DNA of 64,000 nt from Dehalococcoidia bacterium (GCA_965261455.1 OZ253453.1:3447372-3511371), one strand, 5' to 3'. Positions 18,393-60,720 are shown, numbered from the stretch's first letter. Translations and numbers: made by a program. Notes: generated from the sequence alone by a model not told the origin.

Positions 18393-18800
18393 GCATGCCT
18401 CGCTGAGGTGGAGGCGTAGGGGTTGGGAGCGCTTCGGGCGCCCGCGCGCCGCAGGCGCGCGCCCTCTCTTGGTCTCGCCCTAGAGAAACCTTGCGTAACC
18501 TCGTCGCGGAGGGAGCGGGCGCCCACGAGGGGCGCCCCTACGGGAGGGATGGATTCCCGCGAACGCGGGAATGACGGATATGGAGCAGAGGGGAGGGCGA
18601 TTCGCGAATCGCCCCTACGGGGAGCGCGGCGCGGGTTGGCGGGCTTCGATGGGCTTTGGTGGTTGCGAGGGTGCCCCTCATCTCAATCTTCTCCCGTGGG
18701 GAGAAGAGGCAAGACCTCCCGGCCCCGCCCATGCTTGCCCGTGGGCGGTTGTGCAGAGGTCTCCGTTGGGAGAGGGGGTAAGACTTCACCCCGCCGCGGT
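18393..18800. repeat. Cluster of mosaic intergenic palindromic repeat modules (families A/B/C)
   Basis: Contains gggcgcccctacgggagggatggattcccgcgaacgcgggaatgacggatatgg (module B) and cttcgatgggctttggtggttgcgagggtgcccctcatctcaatcttctcccgtggggagaagaggc (module C). Both recur elsewhere in the window. Track ORFs here are artefacts. Confidence 0.8.
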
Positions 18801-19783
18801 CAGGCTTGGCCGTGCTCGCGCTTTAGGGGGAGGGCGACTTCGTTGTAGAAGCGTTCCAGGGCGGTGTAGTCGTAGGGGTGGAGGGCTTGGACGGCGAAGT
18901 GGGTAAAGCCGTTGGCGATGTGCTCGCGGATGAGGGCGCTCATGTCGTCGGGGGTGCCGAGCATGTGGGTGCGGCGGAGGTCTTCGAGGGGGCGGTCGCC
19001 GATGGTGGAGCGTGAGCGCTCTTCGCGCCGGTGCTCGAGGAAGCGGGTCACGTCGGCGGGGTCGTCAGTCATGTGGATGTTGAGGAGCATGAGCGTCTTT
19101 TCGATGGAGTCGTAGTCGCGGCCCTCGGTCTGGCAGTGGCGGCGGAGGGCGCCGAGCTTGCGGGCGGCCTCGTCGGGGGTGGCGATGAAGTTCCAGGCGT
19201 CGGCGTAGCGGGCCACGTAGCGGGCGGTGAGCTGCTCGCCGCCGCCGCCGATCCAGATGGGGATATCGCCGTTGACGGGCTTGGGCTCGCAGATCGCGTC
19301 GTCGATCTGGTAGTAGCGGCCCTTGAACGACGGGCGCTCCTCCGTCCAGAGGGCGCGCATGATCTGGACGGCCTCGCCCATGCGATGCACCCGCTCGGCG
19401 GGCTTGGGGAAGTCGAAGCCGTACATGGCGTGCTCGGGCTGGTGCCATCCCGACCCGATGCCCATGTTTAGCCGCCCGCCGCTTATGTGGTCGATGGTGA
19501 CGGCCATCTTGGCGAGGAGCGCGGGGTTGCGGTAGCCGTTGCCGGTGATCATCACGCCGCAGCGGGCGCTCCGGGTGGAGGCGGCGAGCGCCGCGAGCGC
19601 GGTCCAGCCCTCGAAAACGGGGAGTTCGGGGCCGGGCAGGATCGAGGGGGTGACGTGGTCCGAGGTCCACAGGCTGTCGAAGCCGAGGTCGTCGGCGAAG
19701 CGCCAGACGCGGAGGAGCTCGTCCCAAGGCGCGCCCTCGGTGAGCGTTTCGAGTCCGAAGCGGAGGGGGTGGATGGTGGTCAA
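18800..19783 (-). CDS. LLM-class (luciferase-like) flavin/F420-dependent oxidoreductase
   Basis: 327 aa with TIM-barrel LLM signature (…FDSLWTSDHV…, GGRLNMGIGSGW). Confidence 0.85.
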   Translation of the reverse strand: MTTIHPLRFGLETLTEGAPWDELLRVWRFADDLGFDSLWTSDHVTPSILPGPELPVFEGWTALAALAASTRSARCGVMITGNGYRNPALLAKMAVTIDHISGGRLNMGIGSGWHQPEHAMYGFDFPKPAERVHRMGEAVQIMRALWTEERPSFKGRYYQIDDAICEPKPVNGDIPIWIGGGGEQLTARYVARYADAWNFIATPDEAARKLGALRRHCQTEGRDYDSIEKTLMLLNIHMTDDPADVTRFLEHRREERSRSTIGDRPLEDLRRTHMLGTPDDMSALIREHIANGFTHFAVQALHPYDYTALERFYNEVALPLKREHGQA

Positions 19784-19802
19784 GGGTGGGCTCCCAAGGG
19801 GT

Positions 19803-20495
19803 TCAGCGGCCGCCGGTCATCATGTCGCGGAAACCGTCGAGGGTGAAGCCGGGCGACTTGCAGTAGTCGATGATGCGGCGCTCGCGCTCCTCGACCTTCC
19901 GCGCCGCTTCGGGAAGCTCGCGCGCGGCCTCGATGGGGATGTTGGTAACGCCGTGCTCGTCGCCGTGGAGGAGGTCGCCGGGCTTCACGACGAGCCCGCC
20001 CACCTCGACGGAAACGCCGACGTCGATCAGGTGGTGGTAGGCGTGGGAGACGAGGACGCAGGAGGCGAAGGCGTGGAAGGGCATGGCCTCCATCTCGGGG
20101 AGGTCGCGGACGCCGCCGTTGGTGATGGTGCCCACGCAGCCGAGTGCCTTGAAGATATTGCCGTTGACCTCCCCCCAGAAGGAGCCGATGGGGTTGGGGT
20201 AGTCCATGTCCTGGATGACGAGCACCTTGGGGCCGGGCGTGGCGGCGACGTGCTCCCAGAGCTCGGTGACGCGGGTGCGGGGCTTGGGACTCGGCGGCAT
20301 CCGGGCGCTGATGATCGCGGTGCAGGCGTAGGCGACCAGAGGGTCGAGGTCCGGAAAGAGGCAGTTGATCTCCGGCCCCATGAAGCCTTCGGAGCGGGGG
20401 CGAAGGTCGAGGGTCTCGATGGCGTTGCAGACGGTGGGGCTGGTGATCTGCCGGAGCGCCTCGATCTCGTCGGCGGTGAGGGGGGCGTCGGTCAT
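19803..20495 (-). CDS. RraA-family protein (RNase E inhibitor / 4-hydroxy-4-methyl-2-oxoglutarate aldolase-like)
   Basis: 230 aa. Motifs …VLVIQDMDYPNPIGSFWGEVNGNIFKALGCVGTITNGGVRD… are typical of the RraA/MenG-like fold. Confidence 0.75.
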   Translation of the reverse strand: MTDAPLTADEIEALRQITSPTVCNAIETLDLRPRSEGFMGPEINCLFPDLDPLVAYACTAIISARMPPSPKPRTRVTELWEHVAATPGPKVLVIQDMDYPNPIGSFWGEVNGNIFKALGCVGTITNGGVRDLPEMEAMPFHAFASCVLVSHAYHHLIDVGVSVEVGGLVVKPGDLLHGDEHGVTNIPIEAARELPEAARKVEERERRIIDYCKSPGFTLDGFRDMMTGGR

Positions 20496-20499
20496 GGGT

Positions 20500-20944
20500 T
20501 GTCCTTCCCTCTCTCAATCTCTCCCAGAGGGAGAGAGGTTTAAGGTGCTCTCCCAGGGGGTTTAAGGTGCTCTCCCTAGGGGGAGAAAGGTGCTCTCCCA
20601 GGGGGAGAGAGGCTTATGGTGGCCCTCTCTCAGTCTCTCTCAGAGGAGACCTTTACGTAACCCTTGTCGCGAGGGAACGGGCGCCCACTAGGGGCGCCCC
20701 TACGGGAGGAGATGGATTCCCGCTTGCGCGGGAATGACGGATGGGGGCGGGGCCGGGCACTCAGAAGGCGAGAGTGGTGCGCTTCGATGGGCCTTGGTGG
20801 TTGTGAGGGGGCCCCTCATCTCAATCTTCTCCCGGGGGGGAGAAGAGGCCGGAGGGATGGGATGGATTCCCACTTGCGCGGGAAAGACGGATATGGGCGG
20901 GTCTTGCATGAGGTTTCCAGAGGGAGAGGCTTACGGTGTGGCGG
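20500..20944. repeat. Cluster of mosaic intergenic palindromic repeat modules (families A/B/C)
   Basis: Several copies of ccctctctcaatctctcccagagggagagagg (module A). Also module B (…atggattcccgcttgcgcgggaatgacgg…) and module C (cttcgatgggccttggtggttgtgagggggcccctcatctcaatcttctccc…). Confidence 0.8.
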
Positions 20945-21697
20945 CTAGAGGCGGCGGTCCTCGCCGCCGTCGATGAGGAGCACCTGCCCGGTCATGAAGT
21001 CGCTGTCGCGGGAGGCGAGGAAGACGAGGGCGCCCTGGAGGTCCTGGGGGGTGCCGAGGCGGCGCAGGGGCATGCGGGAGACGAGGTGGTCGAGTATTTG
21101 GGAGTCGATGGTGACGCGGGTGGACTCGGTGTCGATGGGGCCGGGGGCGATGCAGTTGACGTTGATGTTGTCTGGGCCGAGCTCGCTGGCGAAGCCGCGG
21201 GTGAGCCCGACGACGGCGAGCTTGGAGAGGACGTAGGGGCTGGAGCCGGCGACGTAGGCGGCGCCGGAGGACTGGAAGATGATCTTGCCGCCGCCGCGCT
21301 CGCGCATGGAAGGGACGACGGCGCGCGTCATCAGCATCTGGCCGGTCATGTTGACCGCCATGAAGTGCTCGAAATAGTCGAGATCGACAGTGCTGAAGGT
21401 GTCGGTGCGCATGCTGTGGTAGATGGCGCCGTTGTTCACGAGAATGTCGATGCAGCCGAAGCGGTCGACGACGGCGCCGGCGAGATCGAGGCAGCTCTGC
21501 TCTTGGGCGAGGTCGAGGGGCAGGTAGGTGGCCACGCCGCCGAGCTCGTTGATCTCCTCGGAGACCTGCTGGCCGGTATCGGGGTTGATCTCGGCGACGA
21601 CGACCTTTGCGCCCTCGTTGGCCAGGGTCTTGGCGTACTCCCGCCCGATGCCCTGGCCGGCGCCGGTAACGATGGCGACCTTGTCTTCGAGGCGCAT
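20945..21697 (-). CDS. SDR-family oxidoreductase
   Basis: 250 aa with TGAGQGIG Rossmann motif and catalytic YxxxK. Confidence 0.85.
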   Translation of the reverse strand: MRLEDKVAIVTGAGQGIGREYAKTLANEGAKVVVAEINPDTGQQVSEEINELGGVATYLPLDLAQEQSCLDLAGAVVDRFGCIDILVNNGAIYHSMRTDTFSTVDLDYFEHFMAVNMTGQMLMTRAVVPSMRERGGGKIIFQSSGAAYVAGSSPYVLSKLAVVGLTRGFASELGPDNINVNCIAPGPIDTESTRVTIDSQILDHLVSRMPLRRLGTPQDLQGALVFLASRDSDFMTGQVLLIDGGEDRRL

Positions 21698-21852
21698 GTT
21701 GAGTGTCTGCTTGGTCTGTCTAGGAGTGGAGGCGGCGGCGCGATACTAGCACAGGGGCCTGGGCGGGGTGAAGGGAGCGAAATAGCTTGCTATGCTAAAG
21801 CGAATCGACTAGTCTTAAGCCTAGTCAGCGGTGGCACTGCGGGAGGAAAAGT

Positions 21853-22113
21853 ATGGGCAAGGCGTGGCAGGTCCAAGACGCTAAGGCGAGGTTCAGCGAG
21901 TTTCTTGAAGCCAGCCTGGCGGATGGGCCGCAGATCGTGACTCGACGAGGCGTGGAAACGGCGGTGCTTCTTCCCATCGAGCAGTGGCGGAGGTTGGAGA
22001 AGATAACGAAGCCGGACCTGAAGGAGTTGTTGCTCGCGCCGGACGCGCGAACCGACTCGCTCACGCCGCCGCGCCGTGAGCATCGTCACCGAACACCCTC
22101 GGCCATCGAGTAG
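21853..22113 (+). CDS. Type II antitoxin, Phd/YefM family
   Basis: 86 aa (MGKAWQVQDAKARFSEFLEASLADGPQIVTRRGVETAVLLPIEQWRRL). Ends 5 nt before the PIN toxin gene. Confidence 0.8.
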   Translation: MGKAWQVQDAKARFSEFLEASLADGPQIVTRRGVETAVLLPIEQWRRLEKITKPDLKELLLAPDARTDSLTPPRREHRHRTPSAIE

Positions 22114-22117
22114 CCCG

Positions 22118-22525
22118 ATGTACCTGCTCGATACGAACGTGGTCTCGGAGCTGCGGCGTCCAAGGCCTCAGAGGGCCGTCTTAGACTGGATCGCGGACGT
22201 GCCCGCGGAGCAGCTCTTCATATCCGCGGTCACGGTTGGGGAGATCCAGGCAGGGATCGAAATCACTCGCGTGCAAGATGGGGCGAAGGCGGAGGAACTA
22301 GAAGCCTGGCTCGATAGAGTCCTCGCCTCCTATAGCGTCCTGTCGATGGACGCCGCTGCTTTCCGGGAGTGGGCACGGCTCATGCACGGAAAGTCGGACA
22401 CCATAACCGAGGACGCCATGATCGCGGCGACGGCTATCGTTCACAGGCTGACGGTGGTGACTCGGAACGTGGGTGACTTTCGCCAACTTGGCGTGGCGTT
22501 GCAGAATCCCTTCGACAACGAGTAG
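22118..22525 (+). CDS. vapC: Type II toxin VapC (PIN domain)
   Basis: MYLLDTNVVSELRRPRP… with PIN acidic residues (D5, E…, D near the C-terminus in …VTRNVGDF). Internal ATG of track ORF 22076. Confidence 0.85.
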   Translation: MYLLDTNVVSELRRPRPQRAVLDWIADVPAEQLFISAVTVGEIQAGIEITRVQDGAKAEELEAWLDRVLASYSVLSMDAAAFREWARLMHGKSDTITEDAMIAATAIVHRLTVVTRNVGDFRQLGVALQNPFDNE

Positions 22526-22526
22526 C

Positions 22527-22745
22527 TCCGATTCGGCCCTCTCTCAGTCTCTCCTTTTGGAGACCTTTGCGTAACTCGGCGGGCGGGCTTCAGCAAGGTC
22601 GCGCGGTCCCCGCCTCCCCCCGCCCTCTCTCAGTCTCCCCCAGAGGGGGAGAGGTTTAAGTGAATGCCACCTCCGCTCCGCCCACCAGGACCCCAGTCGG
22701 TTGTGCAAAGGGCTCCAGAGGGAGAGAGGTTTGTGGTGATCGCCG
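22527..22745. repeat. Intergenic repeat cluster (module A copies)
   Basis: ccctctctcagtctctccttttggagacctttgcgtaact…, ccctctctcagtctcccccagagggggagaggtttaagtg, …ccagagggagagaggtttgtggtg. Confidence 0.75.
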
Positions 22746-22756
22746 AGAGGAGGCGC

Positions 22757-23683
22757 TTAGCGGTGGAAGGGCGCGATGACTTCGCGGGCGGCGCGTTCGG
22801 TCTGGGCGAGGGTTTCTTCGGGGGGGCCGGCGTGGCGGAGGACGAACTTGGTGGCGCCGTTGTCGACGTAGCGCTGGACCATCGCGGCGATGTCGTCGGG
22901 GGTGCCGATGGCGGCGTAGTCGAAGGGGTCGAGCTCGGGGCGGAGGCGGCCCATGAGGTAGGGGGCCGCGGTCTCGACCGCCTTGGCCTTGGAGTCGTCG
23001 AGGCGGAAGCTGATGATCGTGCCGAAGTGGTCGTCGGGCACGGTGCGGCCGGCCTCTTCGGCGTAGTGGTGGATCCGCTCGATGCCGTGGCCGAGCTCGT
23101 CGGGGGTGAGGGAGGCGGTGAGCCAGCCGTCGCCTCTGCGCCCGACGCGGCGGAAGGCGGGCTCGGTGCGCCCGCCGATCCACACCGGCATCGGATCTTG
23201 GTGGGGCTTGGGCTGGATGGTGGCGTCGTGGACGGTGTAGTAGCGTCCCTCGAAGGTGACGTCGTCCGCGCTCCAAAACTTGCGCATAAGGTCGATGGCC
23301 TCGTCGGTCCTGCCGGCGCGCTGCTTGATATTGGAGCCGCACGCCTCGAACTCGTTGGGGGAGTCGGTCCCGAGGCCGACGGCGGGGAGCATGCGGCCCT
23401 TGCTGATGAAGTCGACGGTGGCGATTTCCTTGGCGAGGACGGCGGGGTTGCGGAGGGGCAGGGCGAGGACGCTGTTACCGAACTTCATGCGCTTGGTGCG
23501 GGCGGCGATGGCGGCCATGACCGTCATGGACTCCATGCTGTAGGCGGGTGCGACGATGCGGTCGGCCAGCCAGATCGAGTCGGCGGCGGAGTCCTCGACC
23601 ATGTCGATGTAGTCCCACAGCAGCTGGGGGTCCTTCTTGGCGAAGGGCCAGCCTAAGAAGCCAACGCCCAAGCGAACCTTCAT
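22757..23683 (-). CDS. LLM-class flavin/F420-dependent oxidoreductase
   Basis: 308 aa (MKVRLGVGFLGWP…SIWLADR…) with LLM-family signature. Confidence 0.85.
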   Translation of the reverse strand: MKVRLGVGFLGWPFAKKDPQLLWDYIDMVEDSAADSIWLADRIVAPAYSMESMTVMAAIAARTKRMKFGNSVLALPLRNPAVLAKEIATVDFISKGRMLPAVGLGTDSPNEFEACGSNIKQRAGRTDEAIDLMRKFWSADDVTFEGRYYTVHDATIQPKPHQDPMPVWIGGRTEPAFRRVGRRGDGWLTASLTPDELGHGIERIHHYAEEAGRTVPDDHFGTIISFRLDDSKAKAVETAAPYLMGRLRPELDPFDYAAIGTPDDIAAMVQRYVDNGATKFVLRHAGPPEETLAQTERAAREVIAPFHR

Positions 23684-23830
23684 GACGCGTGCCTTTCCCG
23701 CGGACGCCGTTCCGTCCGTCCGCCGCGCTGGGATGATACCAGGAGAGGGACGCGCCGTCCGATTGCTCGAAGCGAAGCGGCGCGCCTAGAATGACGCGCA
23801 CTCCATACCGACGCGGCGAGGCCGGTCCCC

Positions 23831-24660
23831 TTGCTCTGGGCCCACTTCATCAACTTCTTCGTCCCTGAGACAAAGGCCGACGCTGCCCTGCATCGGGCTT
23901 GGGAGCGCTGCTACGAGCCGCTGCTGGCCCTGATCGCCGCGCATCCCCGGGCGCGCTTGACGTGCAACGTCGATGGGTCGTTCATCCGGCGGCTGCTCGA
24001 CGCGGGGCTGGGCGCGGGGGTCGCGGCGATCCGGCGGCTCGCCGAGTCGGGACAGGTGGAGCTGACGGCGAGCGCGACGGCGGCCCCGTCCTGGGGCCGA
24101 TGAGCGACGACGCGATCGGGGGCGCGGTGGCCCGCGGTGTCGAGGCGGCGCGAGAGGCGTTCGGCGAGGTCTATGCGCCCGTAGGCTTCTTCCCGCCGGA
24201 GATGTCGTACGACCGGAACGTGGGCGCGGTGACGGCGCGCCTCGGCTTCGAGTGGATGCTGCTCGACGAGATGTCGCACTCCGGCAAGCCGGGGTCGGTG
24301 TCGTGGGACCGGGCCTACCGGCTCGATACGGGGCCGGATACGGCGGACCCGAGACTGAAGCTCCTGTTCCGGGACCGGTCGCTCAGCCAGGGCATGGTCT
24401 ACGGGTCGTTTGACGCGCCGGCGGTGCTGGCGTCGGCGGCGGCGAGCGCCGCACCGGACCGCGTCTACGCCTTCACCGGCGTCGAGGCGGATATCTATGG
24501 AACGCGGCGAGTGCAGCCGAGGGAGTTCCTCGCCGCCATGTTCGAGTACGATGCGTGGGAGATGGTGACAGTGTCGGAGCTTCTGGGGAGGCTCGGCGAC
24601 ACGGAGCCGGTGACGCCGTCGCCGGCGTCGTGGTCGGCGTGGGACACGCTGGCGTTCTAG
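23831..24660 (+). pseudogene. GH57-like glycoside hydrolase family protein, apparently frameshifted near 24070-24100
   Basis: N-part (23831..24103, …SGQVELTASATAAP) and C-part (frame of track ORF 23899, containing GFFPPEMSY, compare GH57 GFWLPE) lie in different frames and overlap by about 30 nt. Confidence 0.45.
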
Positions 24661-24673
24661 AAGGAGTGGCATC

Positions 24674-25663
24674 ATGGACTCCAAGCTGGGGCTTGTGCTC
24701 TACCACGGCTTTGAAAGCGGGGCGGAGTTGGCGCGGTACGCCGAGATCGCGGAGCGCGAGGGGTATGAGAGCCTGTGGATGACGGAGCGCAGCGGCCACG
24801 AGGAGGCCTTCGCGACGCTGGGCTACGCGGCGGCGTCGACGAGCCGGCTGCGGCTGGGGCTCGGCGTGGCCAACGCCTACTCGCGCCATCCGGTGCTGCT
24901 GGCGATGGCGGGCGCGACCCTCGACCGGCTCTCCGGCGGCCGCTTCATCCTGGGCTTGGGCGCGAGCGACCGCGATGTAATCGAGGGGAAGCTGGGCATC
25001 CCGCACGAGCGGCCGATCGCGGAGCTGGAACGCGCCGTCCGGTCGCTGCGGGCCCTGTTCGCAGGGGAAACGGTCGATGAGGAAGCGGGGCGGAGCAAGA
25101 TACGCGGCGTCCGGCTGGGCGTGCATCCCGTGGCCGAGCCGCTGCCGCTCTATGTGGCGGCGGCGGGGCCTAGGGCGCTGGCGATGGCGGGTCGGACCGC
25201 CGACGGGATCATCCTGAATACCTACAGCCCGACGTCGTACGTGCGGTGGGCGGTCGCGACGGCGCGGCGGGCGGCGGAGGAGTCGGGGCGCGACCCCGCG
25301 TCGCTCGACGTGGTGTGCATGCTGGTGGTGCGGCTCACCGACGATCCCTCATCGCTCTACCCCATGTTCAAGGAGCGGGTGGCGCGGCTGTTGTCGGAGC
25401 CCCACGGCGGCGAGCTGCTGCTGAAGGACAGCGACTTCGATCCTGTCCTAGCGGGCCGCGTCCGCGAGGCGGCCTCGGACGGGGGGACGAAGGCGGCCGC
25501 CACGCTGATTCCCGAGGCGATGGTGGAGGAGTTCTACGTCCTCGGCGACGCGGCCCGGTGCAAGCAGCGCATCAAGGAGTACCGGGCGGCGGGGGTGGAC
25601 CAACCGCTGCTGCTGCCTCGGCTGGAGGACTTCGAGGCGGTGGCGTCGGCGTTCGCGGGGTAG
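24674..25663 (+). CDS. LLM-class flavin/F420-dependent oxidoreductase
   Basis: 329 aa (…ESLWMTERSGHE…). Its last 128 nt are duplicated at 28119..28248. Confidence 0.85.
   Translation: MDSKLGLVLYHGFESGAELARYAEIAEREGYESLWMTERSGHEEAFATLGYAAASTSRLRLGLGVANAYSRHPVLLAMAGATLDRLSGGRFILGLGASDRDVIEGKLGIPHERPIAELERAVRSLRALFAGETVDEEAGRSKIRGVRLGVHPVAEPLPLYVAAAGPRALAMAGRTADGIILNTYSPTSYVRWAVATARRAAEESGRDPASLDVVCMLVVRLTDDPSSLYPMFKERVARLLSEPHGGELLLKDSDFDPVLAGRVREAASDGGTKAAATLIPEAMVEEFYVLGDAARCKQRIKEYRAAGVDQPLLLPRLEDFEAVASAFAG
25537..25663 (+). repeat. Direct repeat copy 1 (3' end of the LLM gene) bounding the HEPN-STAND island
   Basis: ctacgtcctcggcgacgcggcccggtgcaagcagcgcatcaaggagtaccgggcggcgggggtggaccaaccgctgctgctgcctcggctggaggacttcgaggcggtggcgtcggcgttcgcggggtag. 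Five mismatches versus copy 2. The 3' 85 nt or so are identical. Confidence 0.85.
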
Positions 25664-25714
25664 GAGCGCGGGGCCATGGACGCCTAAGCCGGAAACCGCC
25701 GAACCTGGCCTTCG

Positions 25715-28048
25715 CTAGGCGTTAAGGTAGCCGCGCAAGTCAGGGAATCGATACAGAAGTCGCTCTTTCTCCGACGCTGCATCGGCATCGTGGGGGTGTT
25801 CTTTCCCCCAGCTTATCAAAGACTGAGATAGCATCTTGAGAGAGCGATGCCGTTGATCGGCCTCTTGGTGAGCTTCACTGATGCGTGCCAGGCGCTCGTA
25901 GTTCAGCACGATAGCACGACATACCTGACTGCGGGACTGATATGGACCATGCTCGAACTCTTCCGGATCCGAGAGTGCATCCTTGAGATGAGTCTCCGCT
26001 TTACGTGCTTCTTGTATTGCTCGGTCGTACTGAACTTGTTGGTACAAGTCCTGAGCCAATCGGCTTCGAGCATATCCAGCCAGGAAGGAAAGCCGCTCGG
26101 AGGGGCCGACGTTCTTGAGGCCGTTTTCAGCAGACCGGGCTGCTGCAGTCCACTCTTGTCGATCACCCTCCATGCTTGACCAGTGCCTGTAGGTTTCCAT
26201 GTTTGAGGACTTAAACTTCGATGCCCGCTCGAAGTGGTAGCGGGCGTCGGTGTAACGGGGCTGCGGTTTCCAGGCTTTGTAAACCCAGCCTAGCATTCCA
26301 TGCAGGTCAGGGTTGTCGGGGTACACGTTCAAGGCGTTGAGAAGAGTCTCTCGGGCATCAGAGTGTTTGTCCAATTTCACTAGGCTGATGGCTTGCCTAA
26401 TATATTGGCCGATACGCCCACGGTCTGCAGGTGACGGTCGCGCCTTGTCCTTGAAGAGCTTGAGAGCGCTTGCTATGCGGCGAGTCAGGTCCGATCCTTC
26501 ATAGACGTCCCGCACCAGTTTTCGCGTGTTCGAATTCAGTGAAAACCTGGACTGTCCTTCGACGAGGTGCGGGGCAGGCAACAAGAATAACTCCTGTAGC
26601 TGCTCAACCGAGTCCTTGCATTCACTTTCCGATAGGTCAGCGACATCCTGTATTTCGGCCAGGGATATCTCTCCCGGATAGAGCGCGCAAGTCAGTAGTG
26701 CCTTCTGGGCTGGAGGTGAGAGCATGTCGAACTCTCTTCCCAAGGCATACCTACGAGCGTCCTCCCCTCCATTATCACGCCATTTATTTGTCGCCATATG
26801 AGGGGTCTCACCCACCTTGCACAAACGCAGCAAGTCTTGAACAAAGAGCGGGCTTCCTTCGCACACCTTCAAGATTTCACGGATGGTGGAACGTGTAAAT
26901 TGACTGGGTTCTAAACCGTACATAGCCACGCGGCTCTTGACAAACTCTATTCCGTCATTTTCAACCTCGAAACCCTTCACCTGTGTCCGTTCCATGGCAT
27001 AGCGAGCTCGGCGTGAGGTAAGCAGGAACTTTGACGGTGTCTTCGTGCGATTCAGAAAGAAGGATACCGCCTCGTCGCTTTCAAGAGAGTCTATGTCGTC
27101 AAGGATAACCAAAGCTGGTAGCAACGAGAGTGATTGACGACACTCGCCTTCTTTCTCTGGAATACCCATGCCTTCGATGTCGGGGCAACCATAGGCACGG
27201 AGGATACAGTCGATGGCGGAATCAAGATTCCAGAAATCCGGTGCTTCGATGTCGACGGTACGGCCTGCTTCGAACCGGCGAGCCTTGGCGCTCATCCAAA
27301 TGATGTATTGAAGGTCAGGAGGTGGATCTTGTGTCACTGACACAGCAAACTGGTAGGCGATGGCGGTTTTGCCTTTCCCTCCGTCGCCCGCCAATAGCCA
27401 GGCGCTGGAATAAGGATCGTTGACCCACTCATGTAGTTGTTGGAGCTCCGCTTTCCTACCGACGAATTGCAGCGCCACCGATTCTCGTGGTGGCAAGGTG
27501 TTCTCCAGCAATCTCTTCTCTGCTATAGCTGCGCTGTTGAATGCTATGCCGCTGATGGATTCGTAGAGAGTTAGAATCTGCTTAGCGGCTTCCATATCAA
27601 TATGGTCCAAGATACGCCTAGCAGAATCCAGCAACATGAGTGCGTCTTTGTCATCCACATCAGCTTCTGCTGGGTGTCCGACGATCGGATTCCGAAGGGT
27701 GGCCACAGTTCTTGCCCACCCAAGGACCGCTTGTCGCCTATCTTTTGTGGGAACTGGCGCCTCTTGATGACTGGGAAATAGGTCGTTGAAGTATTTCTCG
27801 AATAAGTTGAAGAAGTGATGCGCATCTAGCAGATCTGCATCATCCCTAAGTGGTGTCTCAAGTTCACCGGTCGCTCGGACCGTTGCAGCTTTTTCCTTGA
27901 TCCCGGGCCATTCCTTTTGGAATGATGCGGCAATCCTCGTTTGCCAGTCGCCCGGGTATTTTTCGCTCAGCATGTTGCGAATGTGGTTCACGACGGCATT
28001 GCGATAGATTCGGAGTCCGTCAAAGCAAATTGTGTTTGTGGAGGGCAT
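25715..28048 (-). CDS. Tripartite conflict-system-type protein: N-terminal Swt1-like HEPN RNase domain, STAND (NB-ARC-like) P-loop NTPase, C-terminal TPR repeats
   Basis: 777 aa. HEPN R-x5-H in …ATLRNPIVGHPAE…. Walker A LLAGDGGKGKTAIA, Walker B LVILDDIDSL, sensor LLTSRRA. TPR-like C-terminus (…LLNALNVYPDNPDLHGMLGWVYKAW…). Markedly lower G+C than the flanks. Confidence 0.8.
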   Translation of the reverse strand: MPSTNTICFDGLRIYRNAVVNHIRNMLSEKYPGDWQTRIAASFQKEWPGIKEKAATVRATGELETPLRDDADLLDAHHFFNLFEKYFNDLFPSHQEAPVPTKDRRQAVLGWARTVATLRNPIVGHPAEADVDDKDALMLLDSARRILDHIDMEAAKQILTLYESISGIAFNSAAIAEKRLLENTLPPRESVALQFVGRKAELQQLHEWVNDPYSSAWLLAGDGGKGKTAIAYQFAVSVTQDPPPDLQYIIWMSAKARRFEAGRTVDIEAPDFWNLDSAIDCILRAYGCPDIEGMGIPEKEGECRQSLSLLPALVILDDIDSLESDEAVSFFLNRTKTPSKFLLTSRRARYAMERTQVKGFEVENDGIEFVKSRVAMYGLEPSQFTRSTIREILKVCEGSPLFVQDLLRLCKVGETPHMATNKWRDNGGEDARRYALGREFDMLSPPAQKALLTCALYPGEISLAEIQDVADLSESECKDSVEQLQELFLLPAPHLVEGQSRFSLNSNTRKLVRDVYEGSDLTRRIASALKLFKDKARPSPADRGRIGQYIRQAISLVKLDKHSDARETLLNALNVYPDNPDLHGMLGWVYKAWKPQPRYTDARYHFERASKFKSSNMETYRHWSSMEGDRQEWTAAARSAENGLKNVGPSERLSFLAGYARSRLAQDLYQQVQYDRAIQEARKAETHLKDALSDPEEFEHGPYQSRSQVCRAIVLNYERLARISEAHQEADQRHRSLKMLSQSLISWGKEHPHDADAASEKERLLYRFPDLRGYLNA

Positions 28049-28118
28049 TGGGAAGTCGCTTTAGGGCAGCTGTGAGGCCGTCGCGAGTCTAGTTGCATTG
28101 ATGGAGTCCTGCAAGTGC

Positions 28119-28248
28119 CTACCTCCTCGGCGACGCGGCCCGCTGCAAGCAGCGGATCGAGGAGTACCGGGAGGCGGGGGTGGACCAACCGCTGCTGCTG
28201 CCTCGGCTGGAGGACTTCGAGGCGGTGGCGTCGGCGTTCGCGGGGTAG
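28119..28248 (+). repeat. Direct repeat copy 2 (displaced copy of the LLM gene 3' end), distal border of the island
   Basis: ctacctcctcggcgacgcggcccgctgcaagcagcggatcgaggagtaccgggaggcgggggtggaccaaccgctgctgctgcctcggctggaggacttcgaggcggtggcgtcggcgttcgcggggtag. Confidence 0.85.
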
Positions 28249-28258
28249 GCGTGCGGCG

Positions 28259-30514: not shown

Positions 30515-30537
30515 CTCCGCCCTTCGTCCGCGCCGTC

Positions 30538-49243: not shown

Positions 49244-49258
49244 ACGCCCAGGCGCTGC

Positions 49259-49738
49259 TTAAAAGCTGGCACCGAGCTCTGTGAGCAGCTCGAAAAGATT
49301 GATGCATTTGACCCCGTAATGATCGGCTACATCTGGAATCTTGGGTTTCGTTGACTGTGACTCGCGCTTTTCGAAAGTCACGACACGTCCGCCCTCTACG
49401 GCGGCGTGGGCAATCAGCCAAGCGTCCGCTTTCGCTAGAAAACGAGCAACGTGGTGTTGCGCGAAGCGATGATCGGCTTTTACCGAATCGGCGATCTGCC
49501 CGAAAACCCGCTGGACTTCTTCACTTGGTTGTCTGAAGAAGGACTCCTGGACGTTCGTGGCCCATGCATTCAGATCATCGTCGACCTCCTTGAGTTCACC
49601 AAAGACCCGCTCAGGTGCCGCGAAGACCTGTTCCTGAACCTTCCGGTCCAGGTAGCTCCAGAATGAAGGGACTAGTGCAAAGCTATAGTAAGTGCGGCTT
49701 GGCTGGATGAGCGTGTCCGAATCAAGCCAATCAGGCAT
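49259..49738 (-). CDS. DUF4411-family PIN-like nuclease-domain protein
   Basis: 159 aa. Paralog of 278..760. Overlaps the upstream ImmA gene. Low G+C. Confidence 0.7.
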   Translation of the reverse strand: MPDWLDSDTLIQPSRTYYSFALVPSFWSYLDRKVQEQVFAAPERVFGELKEVDDDLNAWATNVQESFFRQPSEEVQRVFGQIADSVKADHRFAQHHVARFLAKADAWLIAHAAVEGGRVVTFEKRESQSTKPKIPDVADHYGVKCINLFELLTELGASF

Positions 49739-50912: not shown

Positions 50913-50962
50913 GAATTACCATCGAGTTTCTTGGATGGCTTTTCCGCAGAGACCGGCCCCAC

Positions 50963-54257: not shown

Positions 54258-54351
54258 GGTTGGGAGAGTCGGCGTTGCCCGGCAGCCCGGGCCCGTTTGA
54301 CGCTAGGCCGCGGGGCGCGGCGTGTCAAGCGCGGCGCTTCGGCGCACCACA

Positions 54352-54392
54352 AAGAGAGAGGCGGCCCCTGGGGACCGCCTCTCCTTGCGAGT
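54352..54392 (-). terminator. Terminator hairpin downstream of the ABC substrate-binding protein gene
   Basis: The minus strand reads gagaggcggtcccc agg ggccgcctctc followed by tctttgtgg. Confidence 0.45.
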
Positions 54393-54407
54393 CTGTCTGT
54401 TGGCGGG

Positions 54408-56435
54408 TCAGTTACTTCCGGGGACGTAGTTCGGCGAGCCGCCGTCGGTCTTGTCGCCGAAAGGCGTGAAGTCCCGGTCGATCCAGAGTTGCTCCATGTC
54501 CTCGACGACGTCGGCGACGGTGCAGCACTGGGTCAGCGGCATGTTGCGCAACGAGGGCCACCAGGAGTGGAAGCGCTTGGTGCGGAAGAGGGGGACGAAG
54601 ATGCGGCGTTCGAGCAAGTCGATCTGGATCTCCTCGGCGATGGCCAACTGTTCGTCGAAGGTCCGGGCTTGGAGGAAGTCTACCCAAAGCTGACCGACTG
54701 GGCCGAGGTCCCAGTGCTCGGTGAAGTACCCCTCGTCGTTGAACGTCGGGCCGTACTGGAGGCGCATGTTGGCGCCGGGGAAGGGGGAGCCCGAGAAGAG
54801 GAAGAACCAGCCCACGTCCCAGTTCTTGGTGCGCAGCTCGTCGAAGTCGCTCGAGCCGGGGATCACGAGACCCTCGCCGGTGGGCACGACCCAGATGTCG
54901 GCCAGGGAGTCGATGGCGATCTGCATGGCCTCCTGGGAGGAGAGGCGGGCGACGAACCGCAGCTCAAGCGGATTGTCGGGGCTGAAGCCGGCGGCTCTCA
55001 TGAGCTGACGGGCGGCGAGGACGTCGCGGGCGCGGTCGACCTGGTTATCGGCGTAGCCGGGGCGGCCCTCGAACATCTGTCGAGGCAGGGCCCAGGCGCC
55101 GTTCAACTCGGCGGGGATACCGACGCCGTGGAGGACGATGGCGGTCTCCGGGCCGTAGGCGAGGTCGCGGACGGCGAACCGGTCGACGGCGATGTCGATG
55201 GCTTCACGGACACGGGGGTCCCTGAGGGCCGGGTTGCGGTTGTTGAGGAACAAGGAGTTCAAGGTGGACGCCATGTTCGCATGTTGCCAACCGGGGATGG
55301 AGTTGGTCAGCTCGGCGTTTCGTCCCGCCAAACGGTTGGTGACGACGGGCCGCTGCCAGAGGACGTTGCCCGAGGTGAAGGCGCCGATGATCGCGGTGGT
55401 GTCCGAGATGATGAAGATCTCGATGGCGTCGAGGTAGGGGATCTGCCGCCCCGCGGCGTCGGTCTTCCAATGGTCGGGGCTGGCTTCCATGGCGAACTTC
55501 ACGTCCGCCTCGGAGGAGACGAAGCGGAAGGGCCCGGTACCGTTGCCCTTCTCGTTGACATCGCCTGGCCTGACGTCGGAGGGGAGGATGTAGAGCGTCC
55601 GAGTGAGTTCGAGGAGCTGGTTGAAGAACGCGCTGCTGAACTCCTTGAGGCGAATTTCGACGGTGGTGTCGTCGATGGCGACGGCCGCGTCGACGACGGC
55701 CATGGCGGCGGCGTTCCCCGGGTCACGGAGCCTCGAAGGGGCGCCGCCGTCGCCTTCCGTCTGACTCTCATACTTCTCGGCGTTCTTCATCCGGTCCATG
55801 CTGTAGACGACATCTTCGGCGGTAAAGGCGGAACCGTCGTGGAACGTGACGCCCTCGCGGAGTTTGAAGGAGTAGACCTTCCCGTCGGAGCTCAGGGACC
55901 ATTCCGTCGCGAGGTCGGGGACGGCGCTCGCCCCGTCGAATTTGCTCGGTTCGATGAGCTTGTCGTACATGGGGCGGATGGGGGTGACGATGCCGGTGCT
56001 GATCCGCAGGAATGGATCGAGGCCGCGGGCGTTCAGTTGCTGCACCGCGGTGAGGGTGCCGCCGCGGATGGGATCGACGCCGGGAACCGCGGTGGGCACC
56101 GGCACGGGCGTGGCGGTGGGGGCGCGGGTCGGGGGTACGGCGGTGGGCGTGGCCCCGGGCATGGAGGTGGCCGCTGGCATGGCGGTAGCCGCGGGCATGG
56201 CGGTGGCCGCTGGCATGGAGGTAGCCCCGGGCATGGCGGTGGCCGCTGGCATGGCGGTAGCCGCGGGCATGGCGGTAGCCGCGGGCATAGCGGTAGCCGG
56301 CGCGGCCGTCGGCTGCGGCGCGGCCGTGGGTTGGGGTGCCTCGGTGGGATCGCCGCCGCCGCACGAGGCGACGATCAGCAGCATGACCCCGAGCGCGGCG
56401 ACAAACGAGAAGAGTCTGCGGTGCCGTGTGAGCAT
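54408..56435 (-). CDS. ABC transporter substrate-binding lipoprotein, family 5 (peptide/nickel, DppA/OppA-like)
   Basis: Lipobox LIVASCGG. (ATAMPA)n linker encoded by 18-nt tandem repeats. SBP_bac_5-type body. Confidence 0.85.
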   Translation of the reverse strand: MLTRHRRLFSFVAALGVMLLIVASCGGGDPTEAPQPTAAPQPTAAPATAMPAATAMPAATAMPAATAMPGATSMPAATAMPAATAMPAATSMPGATPTAVPPTRAPTATPVPVPTAVPGVDPIRGGTLTAVQQLNARGLDPFLRISTGIVTPIRPMYDKLIEPSKFDGASAVPDLATEWSLSSDGKVYSFKLREGVTFHDGSAFTAEDVVYSMDRMKNAEKYESQTEGDGGAPSRLRDPGNAAAMAVVDAAVAIDDTTVEIRLKEFSSAFFNQLLELTRTLYILPSDVRPGDVNEKGNGTGPFRFVSSEADVKFAMEASPDHWKTDAAGRQIPYLDAIEIFIISDTTAIIGAFTSGNVLWQRPVVTNRLAGRNAELTNSIPGWQHANMASTLNSLFLNNRNPALRDPRVREAIDIAVDRFAVRDLAYGPETAIVLHGVGIPAELNGAWALPRQMFEGRPGYADNQVDRARDVLAARQLMRAAGFSPDNPLELRFVARLSSQEAMQIAIDSLADIWVVPTGEGLVIPGSSDFDELRTKNWDVGWFFLFSGSPFPGANMRLQYGPTFNDEGYFTEHWDLGPVGQLWVDFLQARTFDEQLAIAEEIQIDLLERRIFVPLFRTKRFHSWWPSLRNMPLTQCCTVADVVEDMEQLWIDRDFTPFGDKTDGGSPNYVPGSN

Positions 56436-56718
56436 TCTTGCCTCCTGATAAGGGGCGCCTTCAAAGCGCGTCCTCTGAAGTCTCACCCGCGAGGACGCGC
56501 AGAACGCCCGCAGTCGGCACGATAGCAGGGGGCTTTCGCTTCTGTCAATGCGCGTAGGCGCAGCCCGCGGAGGGCGAAATCGGCATGCTTGACGCTCCCA
56601 GAGGGGCGTACTACAGTTCGCGCACGCTCACGCGCCGGCGGAGCGCGCCCGCGGCCCAGGCGTCTATCCGACTAGGTTTGGAAGGAGTGCGCCTCACCGG
56701 CGCTCCGGTTCCCGCCTC

Positions 56719-57699: not shown

Positions 57700-58713
57700 A
57701 TGACGATGAAGGCACCGCTGCAAGAACAGGCCCGCCACCCCGCGGCGTGGGCGCTCGACCGGGCGCGCACGCTGCCGGCGTCCCTGTGGGGCTTTTCCCG
57801 AAGCAAGCCGCTGGGCGGCATCGGCTTGGCCATCCTGGTAGGCTTGGTCCTAATAGGGATCTTCCGAGGTGTCATCGCGCCCTACGATCCGGAGCGGGTG
57901 TTCAACCAGACGACGGAGACGGCGGACAAGCCGGCGGAGACCCTGCGCCTCCGCGGCCCCTTCACCAGCGGCACGGTGTCCGAGATACCGGACGACGCGG
58001 TCACGGTCGACGACATCATCGTCGAGGACGTCTTCTTCTTGCTGGGAACGGACCAGCTGAGCAAGGACGTCTTCAGCCGGCTGGTACACGGGGCGTGGAC
58101 GGCGACCAAGCTCTCCCTGAGCGCCGTCGTGCTGGCGACTCTGGCCGGTTCGCTAGTCGGCCTGCTGAGCGGCTATTACGGGGGGAGGCTCGATCTGTTC
58201 GCGCAGCGCGTTGTCGACGCCTGGCTCTCGATACCGGGGCTGATCCTGGCGATCGCCATCGTCGGCGGCATCGGGGCGAGCACGCTCACGATCATCATTG
58301 CTATTTCCTCCTTCCTCTGGCCGGCGACCTCACGCGTCATCCGGTCGGTCACGCTCAGCGTGAAGGAGTCGCAGTACGTGGAGGCGGCGCGTGCGCTGGG
58401 GGCCGGCGACGTGCGCATCATGCTCCGCCACGTGCTCCCGCAGACGATGGCGCCCCTGATGATCATGGCCTCCTCCATCGTGGGCATCGCCATCACCGTG
58501 GAGGCGGCGCTGGCCTTCCTTGGAGTCGGCATTCCGCCGGGGCAGGCCTCGTGGGGGCAGATGCTTTCGGGCCAAGTGGTGACGCACGCCCGCACCGAGC
58601 CGCTGCTCGTCGTCTGGCCCGGACTGGTAATCACCGCCGCCGTGTTCGGGGCCAACCTGCTCGGCGACTCGCTCCGCGACGTGCTCGACCCCAGGCTCCG
58701 CGGCGCCCAATAG
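57700..58713 (+). CDS. ABC transporter permease (DppC/OppC-like)
   Basis: 337 aa. …EAARALGAGDVRIMLRHVLPQTMAPLMI. Confidence 0.9.
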   Translation: MTMKAPLQEQARHPAAWALDRARTLPASLWGFSRSKPLGGIGLAILVGLVLIGIFRGVIAPYDPERVFNQTTETADKPAETLRLRGPFTSGTVSEIPDDAVTVDDIIVEDVFFLLGTDQLSKDVFSRLVHGAWTATKLSLSAVVLATLAGSLVGLLSGYYGGRLDLFAQRVVDAWLSIPGLILAIAIVGGIGASTLTIIIAISSFLWPATSRVIRSVTLSVKESQYVEAARALGAGDVRIMLRHVLPQTMAPLMIMASSIVGIAITVEAALAFLGVGIPPGQASWGQMLSGQVVTHARTEPLLVVWPGLVITAAVFGANLLGDSLRDVLDPRLRGAQ

Positions 58714-58814
58714 CCTGCTGACCGTTGCGGGGCCATCGGGTACAATTCCGTAAGCGAATGACCGGTCGCGCAAGAGTGGCGGAGCGGCGGGCGGGCCGCC
58801 GGAAGGGGACTCGG

Positions 58815-60512
58815 ATGCAGTACGACCTCGTGATCAAGAACGGCACCGTCGTCGATGGGACGGGACTGCCCAAGCAGCAGGCCGACGTGGCGATCAAGGA
58901 TGGGCTGATCCAGCAGGTCGGCCGGATCAACGCCCCGGCGAACGAGACTATCGACGCTGAAGGGCTGATCGTCTCCCCAGGCTTCATCGACCCGCACACG
59001 CACTACGACGGCCAGCTTACCTGGGACCCGCTGGCGCTTTCGTCGTCGTGGCACGGGGTTACCACGGTGGTGATGGGGAACTGCGGCTACACGCTCGCGC
59101 CCTGCCGCCCCAGTGACAAAGAGCACGAGTACATGAGCAAAACGTTTGCCAAGGTGGAGGGCATGTCGCTCTCCGCCCTCGAGGCGGGCGTCCCGTGGAC
59201 GTGGGAGACGTACGCCGAGTACCTCGACACCCTCGACGCGCGCCTCGGCGTCAACGCCGTCCCCTACATCGGCCACACCGCGGTCCGGCGCTACGTGATG
59301 GGCGAGGAGTGCTTCGAGCGCGAGGCCAACGACGACGAGATCCAGCGCATGCGCATGGAAGTGGGCAAGGGGATGGCGGCGGGCGCCTGCGGCTTCTCTA
59401 CGTCGCAAGCGTCAAGCCATGTTGGATATTACGAGGAGCCGATCCCCAGCCGCCTCGCCACCGACCGCGAGATCGAGGAGCTCTGCGGGGCCGTCGGCGA
59501 CGCCAATGCGGGCAACCTGATGGTCCTGTGCCGCAGCGCCATCGAGGGCATCAACGCCGACGACCGCAAGCTGCTCATCCGCCTCTCCGCCGACAACGGC
59601 CGCCCGGTGATCATCCAGGGCCGCCTGATCCAGGAGGCCATCGATGCCGGCGCCGGCGTGTTCGGGCTGCTGCAGGCGAGGCCCTTCGACCGCATCTTCA
59701 ATCTCAAGCACACCACTGTCCTCGACGGGCTGCTCACCTGGGGCACGGTGCTGCGTAAGCCCATGGACGAGCGTCTGCGCCTGCTCCGCGACCCCGAGAC
59801 CCGGGCCGCCATGCGCCACGACGTGGACCATCCCAATACCGACCGCAACAAGGGCGTCGTCCTGCCGGCCCCGCCGTGGGAGACGATCTTCGTCAACACG
59901 GTGAAGCTCGACAAGAACCGCGGCCTGGAAGGCAAGTCGGTGGTCGAGATCTCGAAAGAGACCGGCAAGCACATCGCCGACGTCATCATCGACCTGGCGC
60001 TGGAGGAAGACCTCGAAACGTTCTTCCGCTACTTCAAGGGCCGGACGGACGCCGAAGAAGAGAAGATGCTCCGTGACCTCCGGTCGCCGTACGCGGTCCT
60101 GGGCATCTCGGACGCAGGGGCGCACCTCGACCGCGACGACGGGGCCTACTATGCTACCCACTTCCTGCAGGAATACGTCCGCGATAAGGGACTGTTCTCG
60201 CTGGAGGAGGCGGTCCGCATGTTGACGTTCGTGCCCGCGGCGGTGTGGAACATCTACGACCGCGGCATTCTGCGTCCCGGCTACGCCGCCGACGTGACAA
60301 TCTTCGACGCCGCGAAGATCCGGCTCGTCTCCAAGGACATGTCGAACGACCTCCCCGGCGGCGACTACCGCTTCAGCGCGGTGCCCGACGGCGTGAACTA
60401 CACCATCGTCAACGGCCAGGTCCTCATCAAGGACAGGGAGCACCAGGGCGCGTACCCCGGCAAGGTGATCCGCTCGAACAAGGTGAGCCGCCCCGCCATC
60501 GGCGTAAGCTAG
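58815..60512 (+). CDS. D-aminoacylase / N-acyl-D-amino-acid deacylase family (amidohydrolase-3)
   Basis: MQYDLVIKNGTVVDGTG…SPGFIDPHTHYDGQ…GISDAGAHLD. Internal ATG of track ORF 58725. Confidence 0.8.
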   Translation: MQYDLVIKNGTVVDGTGLPKQQADVAIKDGLIQQVGRINAPANETIDAEGLIVSPGFIDPHTHYDGQLTWDPLALSSSWHGVTTVVMGNCGYTLAPCRPSDKEHEYMSKTFAKVEGMSLSALEAGVPWTWETYAEYLDTLDARLGVNAVPYIGHTAVRRYVMGEECFEREANDDEIQRMRMEVGKGMAAGACGFSTSQASSHVGYYEEPIPSRLATDREIEELCGAVGDANAGNLMVLCRSAIEGINADDRKLLIRLSADNGRPVIIQGRLIQEAIDAGAGVFGLLQARPFDRIFNLKHTTVLDGLLTWGTVLRKPMDERLRLLRDPETRAAMRHDVDHPNTDRNKGVVLPAPPWETIFVNTVKLDKNRGLEGKSVVEISKETGKHIADVIIDLALEEDLETFFRYFKGRTDAEEEKMLRDLRSPYAVLGISDAGAHLDRDDGAYYATHFLQEYVRDKGLFSLEEAVRMLTFVPAAVWNIYDRGILRPGYAADVTIFDAAKIRLVSKDMSNDLPGGDYRFSAVPDGVNYTIVNGQVLIKDREHQGAYPGKVIRSNKVSRPAIGVS

Positions 60513-60554
60513 CGCGGGGACTTTTCCCGCTCACGACGGCGGCGCCCCTGTTCT

Positions 60555-60720
60555 GGGGCGCCGCGCCTTAAGCCTCTCCCCCTCTGGGGGAGACTTAGAG
60601 AGGGCGCGCGCCGCGTGCGCGCGCCCTTAGGGCGCCGCCTCCCTCCGAAACCCGCCAACCCTGTCGAGGTCTGCCACTCCCGTAGCCTGGTTCTCCTAAG
60701 GAGAAAAACCTCGTAGCGTA
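60555..60720. repeat. Intergenic repeat cluster (module A plus a GC palindrome)
   Basis: ctctccccctctgggggagacttagagagggcgcgcgccgcgtgcgcgcgccc…. Confidence 0.7.

Follow-up and report, generated by a model that had tools for sequence, protein, structure and literature searches.

A clade-wide family of clustered, REP-like intergenic hairpins whose orientation follows strand skew in high-GC Dehalococcoidia

Repetitive extragenic palindromic (REP) sequences, known from the bacterial interspersed mosaic elements (BIMEs) of Enterobacteria and from the REPIN-RAYT systems of Pseudomonas, in which they accompany a REP-associated tyrosine transposase (RAYT), are GC-rich hairpins of 20-25 nt that carry an unpaired GTAG 5' of the stem (PMC3333891, PMC3116915, PMC3733652). 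They usually reside outside genes, between convergent or co-directional neighbors, and mostly occur as inverted pairs (head-to-head or tail-to-tail), with head-to-tail arrangements described as "absent or under-represented" (PMC3733652). RAYT cuts REP DNA in vitro, whereas movement in vivo and a link between REP processing and replication, specifically the lagging-strand template, have been proposed but not demonstrated (PMC3333891). Here we describe intergenic hairpin repeats of this general type in a 64,000-nucleotide stretch of DNA from a Dehalococcoidia bacterium (GCA_965261455.1 OZ253453.1:3447372-3511371), hereafter called the window, whose positions are counted from its first letter and whose G+C content is about 67%, and in 866 kb of related DNA.

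The repeats resemble REP and BIME sequences in hairpin size, GC-richness and unpaired GTAG. They also form several stem subfamilies with compensated changes, are extragenic and numerous, follow gene ends, are rare in divergent spacers, and build strain-variable clustered mosaics that lack target duplications. The departure from known REPs is one of organization, namely a head-to-tail arrangement and a polarity relative to replication-type strand skew. The inverted pairs typical of BIMEs and REPINs are nearly absent, with a single case among neighboring GTAG-tagged units, and no RAYT gene was found in the window or the 866 kb. A search of the literature returned no report of replication-linked polarity for REPs. 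We consider it probable that the repeats are clusters of non-autonomous, REP-type hairpin elements distributed clade-wide among high-GC Dehalococcoidia, and that their spread or retention is coupled to replication.

The initial annotation of the window described a mosaic of three modules (A, B and C) recurring in intergenic spacers, which we number 1 to 7 along the window. This recurrence is genuine. Module A (32 nt) has five matches in the window with three or fewer mismatches, at 20507 (+), 22623 (+), 40612 (-), 41394 (+) and 60573 (-), against 0.00 in shuffled sequences, and a sixth copy with a 1-nt indel is found at 44289-44321. Module B has its hairpin at 18549, at 20712 and, in degenerate form, at 20854-20901, and the module C copies at 18643-18737, 20781-20849 and 41483-41572 are 93-94% identical; shuffling likewise produced no copies of these two modules. 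When the seven spacers were compared with the window by BLASTN, the only matches were those same spacers and a fragment at 15.2 kb (83-100% identity), and thus the similarity reflects multi-module homology rather than GC-rich low complexity. The window yields no Rfam match at the gathering score (only sub-threshold noise at E<1 in 18300-22800), no tRNA gene and no relation to tmRNA, and a full-text literature search did not find the module sequences in papers.

Although A, B and C all recur, the three-module scheme needs revision because there are more than three types and the units are smaller. The units are small hairpins of four recurrent kinds. The first is an untagged polypyrimidine/purine hairpin, TCTCYCCC-N3-GGGRGAGA, with CACCTTAARCC on its 5' side and YTGAGAGAGGG on its 3' side. 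Such hairpins compose module A, the core of module C (CTTCTCCC...GGGAGAAG plus TTGAGATGAGGGG) and a further unit that we call E, and they also occur as tandem runs with a period of 22 or 30-31 nt. The second kind, the GTAG-REP, is a GGGC...GCCC hairpin with an unpaired GTAG on one side only. It forms the first half of module B and recurs at 18595-18618. The second half of module B is the third kind, a CGTC-REP of the Neisseria dRS3 type. The fourth kind comprises GCGCGCC-N3-5-GGCGCGC palindromes.

Most of 112 GGGC...GCCC hairpins carry GTAG immediately 5' of the stem and on one strand only. Their bodies are 20-21 nt with stems of 7-10 bp, and a perfect stem of at least 7 bp is present at 102 of 160 GTAGGGGC sites. 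In total, 97 copies were counted in the 866 kb, and the window contains four (18517-18541, 18595-18618, 20679-20703 and 41436-41460). GTAG-23 of Thermomicrobium roseum, from the same phylum (Chloroflexi), is similarly GTAG-tagged and mostly clustered, as judged by description rather than by sequence (PMC3733652). Its small GC-rich palindromes (CCGSSCC N3-4 GGSSCGG) recall the mini-palindromes that we find at empty sites, but it forms large blocks at few loci, whereas the Dehalococcoidia units occupy many spacers.

The CGTC units bring to mind the intergenic mosaic elements of Neisseria, and the window sequence CGTC-ATTCCCGC-N4-GCGGGAAT-CCA agrees feature for feature with dRS3 (ATTCCC-N8-GGGAAT), also known as CGTC-1 (PMC3733652). 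On the minus strand, 18549-18577 reads CCGTC-ATTCCCGC-GTTC-GCGGGAAT-CCAT, and 20713-20739 has the same form. Each unit has an 8-bp stem starting with AT, a 4-nt loop and a CCA tail, as in the CGTC-1/dRS3 definition (PMC3733652). The units here are single or head-to-tail, and the head-to-head dimers that predominate among CGTC-1 repeats were not seen. They are also rare and patchy, with nine copies confined to the window's species and one other genome, and their host phylum is different. A 2013 survey reported CGTC repeats in five phyla, Chloroflexi not among them, and no dedicated transposase is known for this type (PMC3733652). The resemblance extends to the surroundings of the units. In Neisseria, dRS3 is interleaved with other repeat families to build large intergenic mosaics, and the CGTC units of the window are likewise interleaved with other families.

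The hairpin stems are kept through compensating changes. The single variable position of the polypyrimidine stem is Watson-Crick paired in 390 of 396 cells (C-G in 298, T-A in 92). GTAG-REP stems vary among GATTC, GCGTC, GAGTC, AACC, GACC and GCCC, and their compensation exceeds that in all 500 shuffles at two pairs per length class. Single-strand folding of the units reproduces the expected hairpins, in agreement with the initial annotation, and in one folded sequence offers the pyrimidine arm two alternative purine tracts as pairing partners. In a census of perfect hairpins covering the window and 800 kb of related DNA, 597 of 771 were located in intergenic DNA, which makes up 29% of the total. 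Judged by sequence, the GTAG and CGTC units fit the published REP definitions, and their membership in this class is well supported. The earlier description of a REP-like family of mosaic hairpins is therefore a good one.

Related loci were picked from a collection of species-representative genomes with a degenerate module A pattern. Among more than 105 stretches with the pattern, at least 98 loci belong to six high-GC Dehalococcoidia metagenome-assembled genomes (MAGs), each distinct at the species level and none of them the genome of the window. One more stretch is in a MAG with 62% G+C, and six are in low-GC genomes. The latter were discarded as chance matches to module A within coding DNA. 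Window repeats match related loci at identities reaching 96.6% over 116 nt and 98.6% over 69 nt, far above the sole coding match between them (76% identical). Thus, the family is clade-wide, being shared with no fewer than six further Dehalococcoidia genomes of species rank, and is not specific to one genome, contrary to the initial suggestion. No module A was found in viral contigs, and the plasmid collection gave no match to spacer 1. The MAG with 62% G+C, labelled "uncultured proteobacterium", carries module A and the GC palindrome in the same arrangement (L060, 4250-4450), so either its label or binning is wrong or the family extends past Dehalococcoidia.

Units were initially reported to occur in different orientations, but within clusters they are co-oriented. 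Neighboring GTAG-REPs are head-to-tail rather than inverted by 22:1, and neighboring module A copies have the same orientation by 35:0. Comparisons between modules give 76:2 for A and GTAG-REP, 70:0 for A and C, and 42:0 for C and GTAG-REP, while CGTC units and adjacent GTAG-REPs are co-oriented by 10:1.

Orientation is also consistent between loci. We estimated the sense-strand component of skew (-0.035) from genes on both strands and removed it, and unit orientation follows the skew so corrected by about 4-5:1 (p ~1e-12 to 1e-15). Pyrimidine-first module A is on the G-rich strand in 116 of 140 copies (116:24, p 1e-15) and at 64 of 80 loci (64:16). The C-rich strand carries the GTAG tag (70:14), the CGTC tag (8:0), CACCTTAARCC (79:4) and the purine tail, with a strand bias of 141:26 for YTGAGAGAGGG. 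The bias persists when skew is computed from long repeat-free genes only (97:23) or from third codon positions only (99:23), and it is seen in both gene orientations (19:6 and 34:3). By comparison, unit orientation relative to co-directional flanking genes is only 43:30, and genes alone have no strand preference (48:52). Within genes, the 8-mer GTAGGGGC is found on the G-rich strand by 16:2, opposite to the REPs, so the polarity does not arise passively from base composition.

On three large contigs, the repeats change orientation together with the residual skew, namely CBDBNG contig_1 (320-392 kb), OZ220083 (128-312 kb) and OZ242299 (1.62-1.70 Mb). In the window, corrected skew based on coding sequences changes from positive to negative at about 58000-61000, beside a Ku gene, and the module A copy at 60573 is inverted too. 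This switch near 60 kb, where a search gave no dif-like site, could represent either the edge of a replichore or a point of rearrangement.

Relatives from the window's own species, recovered via a flanking protein, are 92.5-97.6% identical to the window over 20 kb. Two of the three module spacers in this stretch (spacers 5 and 6) vary between strains, whereas in spacer 4 five strains differ by no indel as long as 12 nt. In spacer 5, a GC palindrome and module A are present in all strains, followed by a GTAG-REP and module C in the window and L112, and by two short hairpin units in L111, L113 and L114. In spacer 6, a 125-nt composite is missing from L113 and L114, which instead have a mini-palindrome of about 25 nt and a different rpiB C-terminus. 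A metagenome contig with 91% coding identity (L107) carries the same modules in a different order and orientation after the same gene. When species are compared, two genomes have hairpins in one spacer (a single one versus two in tandem) that is empty in a third genome, where again a mini-palindrome is found. None of the filled and empty sites compared between strains or species has a target-site duplication, nor do they reveal terminal inverted repeats apart from the hairpins themselves. These observations support the view that repeat spacers are hot spots for structural change between strains, as had been anticipated when the repeats were proposed to mark recombination hotspots.

How might such elements spread? 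We propose that, as replication proceeds, the units would fold as single strands and in this form be moved, amplified or retained. The likely agent would be an HUH/Y1 enzyme of RAYT or IS200/IS605 type that is specific for hairpins and presumably encoded elsewhere in the genome. Thereafter, tandem duplications and recombination among the copies would diversify the mosaics. If the units influence mRNA ends, or if the purine tail serves as a ribosome-binding site (20496-20538 and 40612-40665), this would be secondary co-option. Single-strand handling is the simplest mechanism to unite the hairpins with non-pairing tags, the lack of terminal inverted repeats and target-site duplications, the conservation across the clade, the turnover between strains and the replichore polarity. 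A precedent is offered by IS200/IS605 single-strand transposons and their miniature derivatives, which also have hairpins instead of terminal inverted repeats and cause no target duplication, and whose replication-linked orientation is documented (PMC3971601, PMC3333891). Unlike in that system, no tnpA or tnpB gene was found near the repeats, no conserved target tetranucleotide was seen, and the tag strand is opposite to that of the model under the usual skew rule.

Several points weigh against our proposal. Neither the window nor the 866 kb of related DNA, which samples part of each genome, contains a RAYT/Y1 gene detectable by tblastn with E. coli RayT or by a scan for the Y..NP..G motif, and thus the enzyme is hypothetical. 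The polypyrimidine hairpins have no known tag. Filled and empty alleles differ by replacement of a mini-palindrome of about 22-26 nt rather than by clean insertion, and this exchange could be produced by recombination without any transposase. The strand markers conflict, in that the C-rich strand carries 16S rRNA and rplQ but the G-rich strand carries gyrB. The markers sought (r-proteins, rRNA, gyrB and dnaA) and tRNAs were too few and too discordant to yield a leading versus lagging assignment. If the leading strand is G-rich, the tag strand is the leading-strand template, whereas the IS608 model places the active strand on the lagging-strand template. Because tandem duplication alone could cause co-orientation within clusters, only the bias between loci is independent evidence. 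Moreover, related loci were picked by the module A pattern, and therefore the counts of other modules are not an unbiased census.

The sole match in the RAYT search was in L034, an Ignavibacteria contig with 34% G+C whose module A is a chance match within an ABC ATPase gene, and it was set aside. A DUF559 (Vsr-like) endonuclease was considered as a recurrent partner and rejected, since it occurs once in the sample, its gene (4275-4610) being embedded in L076 in a spacer of about 2 kb that consists almost entirely of stacked modules (3600-6700). The polar arrays and their toxin-antitoxin and GNAT neighbors also led us to consider an integron attC array. This idea was dropped, as the units flank ordinary metabolic genes both ways and lack the R''/R' architecture of attC sites, although no formal test was applied.

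A more specific claim, which we advance only tentatively, is that only one replication strand receives or keeps these REP-type copies, which would give strictly head-to-tail, replichore-polar mosaics throughout the clade, or else that they are polar chromosomal signals used by the host. If the former is true, this would constitute natural genomic evidence that REP-class hairpins are processed single-stranded at the replication fork, and such processing would include a new untagged polypyrimidine/purine hairpin family as well as CGTC units. The co-orientation of GTAG, CGTC and a third hairpin type along replichores would offer a handle on the disputed spread of REPs. It predicts one strand-specific process for all three hairpin types, for which filled and empty strain sites suitable for testing exist.

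Among the alternatives, the units might act primarily at the RNA level, as factor-independent terminators, 3'-end stabilizers that counter exonucleases, or elements that sequester or supply a Shine-Dalgarno sequence, and be kept for this function. Copies of module A are enriched after gene ends and depleted in divergent spacers, with 38 in convergent, 73 in co-directional and 9 in divergent spacers against a background of 92, 297 and 88. The hairpins are stable and, as noted, the pyrimidine arm has two possible purine partners, and in two spacers the purine tail GAGAGAGGG is located 11-22 nt ahead of a start codon (ATG at 20495; start at 40666), one of these being the spacer that is free of larger indels in five strains. 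Rho-independent terminators likewise place GC-rich hairpins after stop codons, but the units here lack a T-run, are stacked in arrays, and are oriented independently of transcription. A search for terminator-like sites in 18000-36500 found none, and no T-runs, inside the three repeat spacers scanned (18393-22756), while classic T-tailed bidirectional terminators are present elsewhere in the window at 32704-32739 and 35809-35836. In addition, the asymmetric units track skew in both gene orientations far better than they track co-directional genes, near-identical strains carry different modules after the same gene, and some spacers have up to a dozen units, beyond the need of one terminator. For these reasons, we judge an RNA-level function unlikely as the organizing principle of the family, contrary to an early suggestion that the elements could serve as terminators or mRNA stabilizers. 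Individual copies may have RNA-level roles, by which the family as a whole is not explained. For example, the fixed, counter-polar copy before the SDR gene in spacer 4 may have been co-opted as a 5' leader.

It is somewhat harder to see the units as polar DNA signals selected by the host and read by a strand-specific machine moving with or against replication, such as FtsK/SpoIIIE sites (KOPS and SRS), Chi-like sites, or priming and fork-handling sites, whose orientation is kept by selection and not imposed by insertion. The KOPS motif is GGGNAGGG, and the SRS motif GAGAAGGG. The bias by skew domain is strong and consistent over several species, orientation flips exactly where skew flips, and the most conserved asymmetric motifs, including YTGAGAGAGGG, are purine-rich and similar to SRS and KOPS. 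A KOPS-like signal should share the strand of in-gene GGGNAGGG and GAGAAGGG, which favor the G-rich strand (68:19 and 20:8), yet the purine tail is on the C-rich strand. Every hairpin also gives a purine run on both strands, the copies are bunched in a few spacers rather than evenly spread, and their presence varies between strains, unlike that of an essential architectural signal. Taken together, these features give such signals little chance of accounting for the family. As a separate observation in the same 380 kb of genic DNA from related loci, GAGGGGG (84:15) and GTAGGGG (55:9) are also skewed towards the G-rich strand, and along with GGGNAGGG they are candidate KOPS-like polar motifs for the clade.

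A third possibility dispenses with a dedicated enzyme. The mosaics would then be by-products that arise when replication slips or switches templates at hairpins and when copies undergo homologous recombination or gene conversion, and they would spread through recombination between strains. Tandem arrays with periods of 22, 30-31 and 169 nt and the cassette-like replacement of alleles without target duplication are consistent with such processes, and template switching at forks is intrinsically strand-asymmetric. Left unexplained are the occurrence of the same units at about a hundred unrelated spacers over several genomes, the invariant non-pairing GTAG and CGTC tags, and repeats that are up to 97-99% identical where the single coding match is 76% identical. 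We therefore regard this scenario as improbable.

Classical miniature inverted-repeat transposable elements (MITEs), which derive by deletion from an insertion sequence with a DDE transposase and are mobilized through terminal inverted repeats, are brought to mind by the 100-170 nt composite units bounded by similar hairpins and by the IS481-like and IS110-like insertion sequences in or beside module-rich spacers, but this reading of the repeats as MITE-like is very improbable because filled and empty sites differ by no target-site duplication, about 25 nt of target is replaced, no additional terminal inverted repeats are present, and the units recombine freely rather than forming one fixed mobile element. 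In genome 04bbb1fd (L015, L022, L029 and L081), a 1.33-kb IS481-like element with a 405-aa transposase occurs at least four times in module-rich spacers, and one copy adjoins a five-copy, 169-nt tandem array of module C and the GC palindrome. This element was rejected as the mobilizer; it stops before the modules start, and therefore the modules are flanking DNA and not element ends. An IS110-like gene (L020, 513-1544) adjoins a GTAG-REP. Insertion sequences seem to accumulate in, or to target, module-rich spacers.

By a gene map based on GC content at third codon positions, all of the spacer repeats in the window are between genes as originally described, except that the module A copy at 44289 overlaps the end of rpiB. 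Spacer 1 (18393-18799, minus strand) separates two convergent gene ends. In plus-strand order, it comprises a GC palindrome (18443-18461), an E-like unit (18460-18500), a GTAG-REP with its tag on the minus strand (18517-18541), a CGTC-REP (18550-18576, hairpin 18553-18572), a second GTAG-REP (18595-18618), and module C (18643-18737) with its core hairpin at 18687-18707. An isolated fragment of the outer arm of module C is located at 15200-15237 on the minus strand, where a partial copy had been noted, and is 83-92% identical to 20768-20803 and 18643-18667. Spacer 2 (20496-20944, minus strand), between two minus-strand genes, begins with module A (20507-20538), whose GAGAGAGGG tail is 11 nt upstream of the ATG at 20495. 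It continues with a 22-nt mini-tandem (20537-20605), unit E (20621-20661), a GTAG-REP (20679-20703), a CGTC-REP (20713-20739), module C (20781-20849) and a degenerate CGTC-REP (20863-20889). Spacer 3 (22526-22756, minus strand) is 3' of a PIN toxin gene and holds unit E (22535-22575), module A (22623-22660) and a partial A (22698-22735).

Spacer 4 (40591-40665, plus strand) is immediately upstream of the SDR gene that starts at 40666. It contains a lone module A (40612-40643) in purine-tail orientation on the plus strand, the sole copy in the window contrary to the skew rule. Spacer 5 (41374-41600, minus strand), between convergent genes, has a GC palindrome (41375-41393), module A (41394-41425), a GTAG-REP (41436-41460) and module C (41483-41572). 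Spacer 6 (44173-44329, minus strand) consists of an E-like unit (44195-44235), two GC hairpins (44252-44268 and 44269-44287) and a variant of A (44289-44321) that overlaps the rpiB stop codon. This copy provides the last codons and the stop of rpiB (44296-44775), whose product has 159 aa in the window and 153 aa in strains without the spacer 6 element, and the repeats can thus rewrite the 3' ends of genes. The repeats of spacer 7 (plus strand), upstream of the Ku gene (60724-61647), had been assigned to 60555-60720; they are present but confined to 60539-60627, as a GC hairpin (60539-60564), a module A inverted relative to most copies (60573-60604) and a GC palindrome (60601-60627).

The accessory genes said to abut several copies are indeed there. 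A REase-ARP/PD-(D/E)xK open reading frame (ORF; 16451-17431) and a second ORF without a Pfam match (17439-18392) precede spacer 1, and a Phd/PIN toxin-antitoxin pair precedes spacer 3. ORFs called across the repeats do encode EEMDSRLRGNDG and ASMGLGGCEGAPHLNLLP, as described earlier, and the repeats thus give rise to spurious ORFs with peptides such as EMDSRLRGNDG. The repeats are also a likely source of assembly breaks in Dehalococcoidia MAGs.

Other differences between the strains were noted. An MGH1-like glycoside hydrolase gene (42569-44060, minus strand) is split across two overlapping frames in the window and intact (421 aa) in L111-L113, reflecting either a frameshift pseudogene or a sequencing error. 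A region at 34443-35410 that overlaps a dCTP-deaminase-like gene (34844-35395) is absent from L112. At 47559, L111 has a 1.36-kb low-GC insert and L113 and L114 have an 830-bp insert. Of the strains compared, just the window and L112 have all or some of a 1.7-kb segment (49249-50955), which in L112 encodes DUF4276 and AAA_21 ATPase proteins. L113 and L114 share a 453-bp insertion with an NYN-domain gene at 38919. Close by, at 38938-39160, are two 77-nt units, 87% identical and spaced by 146 nt, each with a CCAGCGAT-AGC-ATCGCTGG hairpin; they are upstream of a Rieske gene (39171) and have no Rfam match.

Two further features of the window stand apart from the repeat family. An 18-nt tandem repeat of about 8-9 copies at 56108-56323 is inside a long ORF (54408-56486 on the minus strand or 54297-56525 on the plus strand), and is coding low-complexity sequence unrelated to the intergenic modules. 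Finally, a 2.4-kb island of low G+C (53%) with an ORF for a 777-aa STAND-type NTPase (25715-28048, minus strand; NB-ARC, AAA_16 and TPR) is found at 25534-28259. Direct repeats of 141 nt with 94% identity (25534-25674 and 28119-28259) flank the island, the first being the 3' end of a luciferase-like monooxygenase gene, and the whole resembles a defence-type gene whose insertion duplicated the target.

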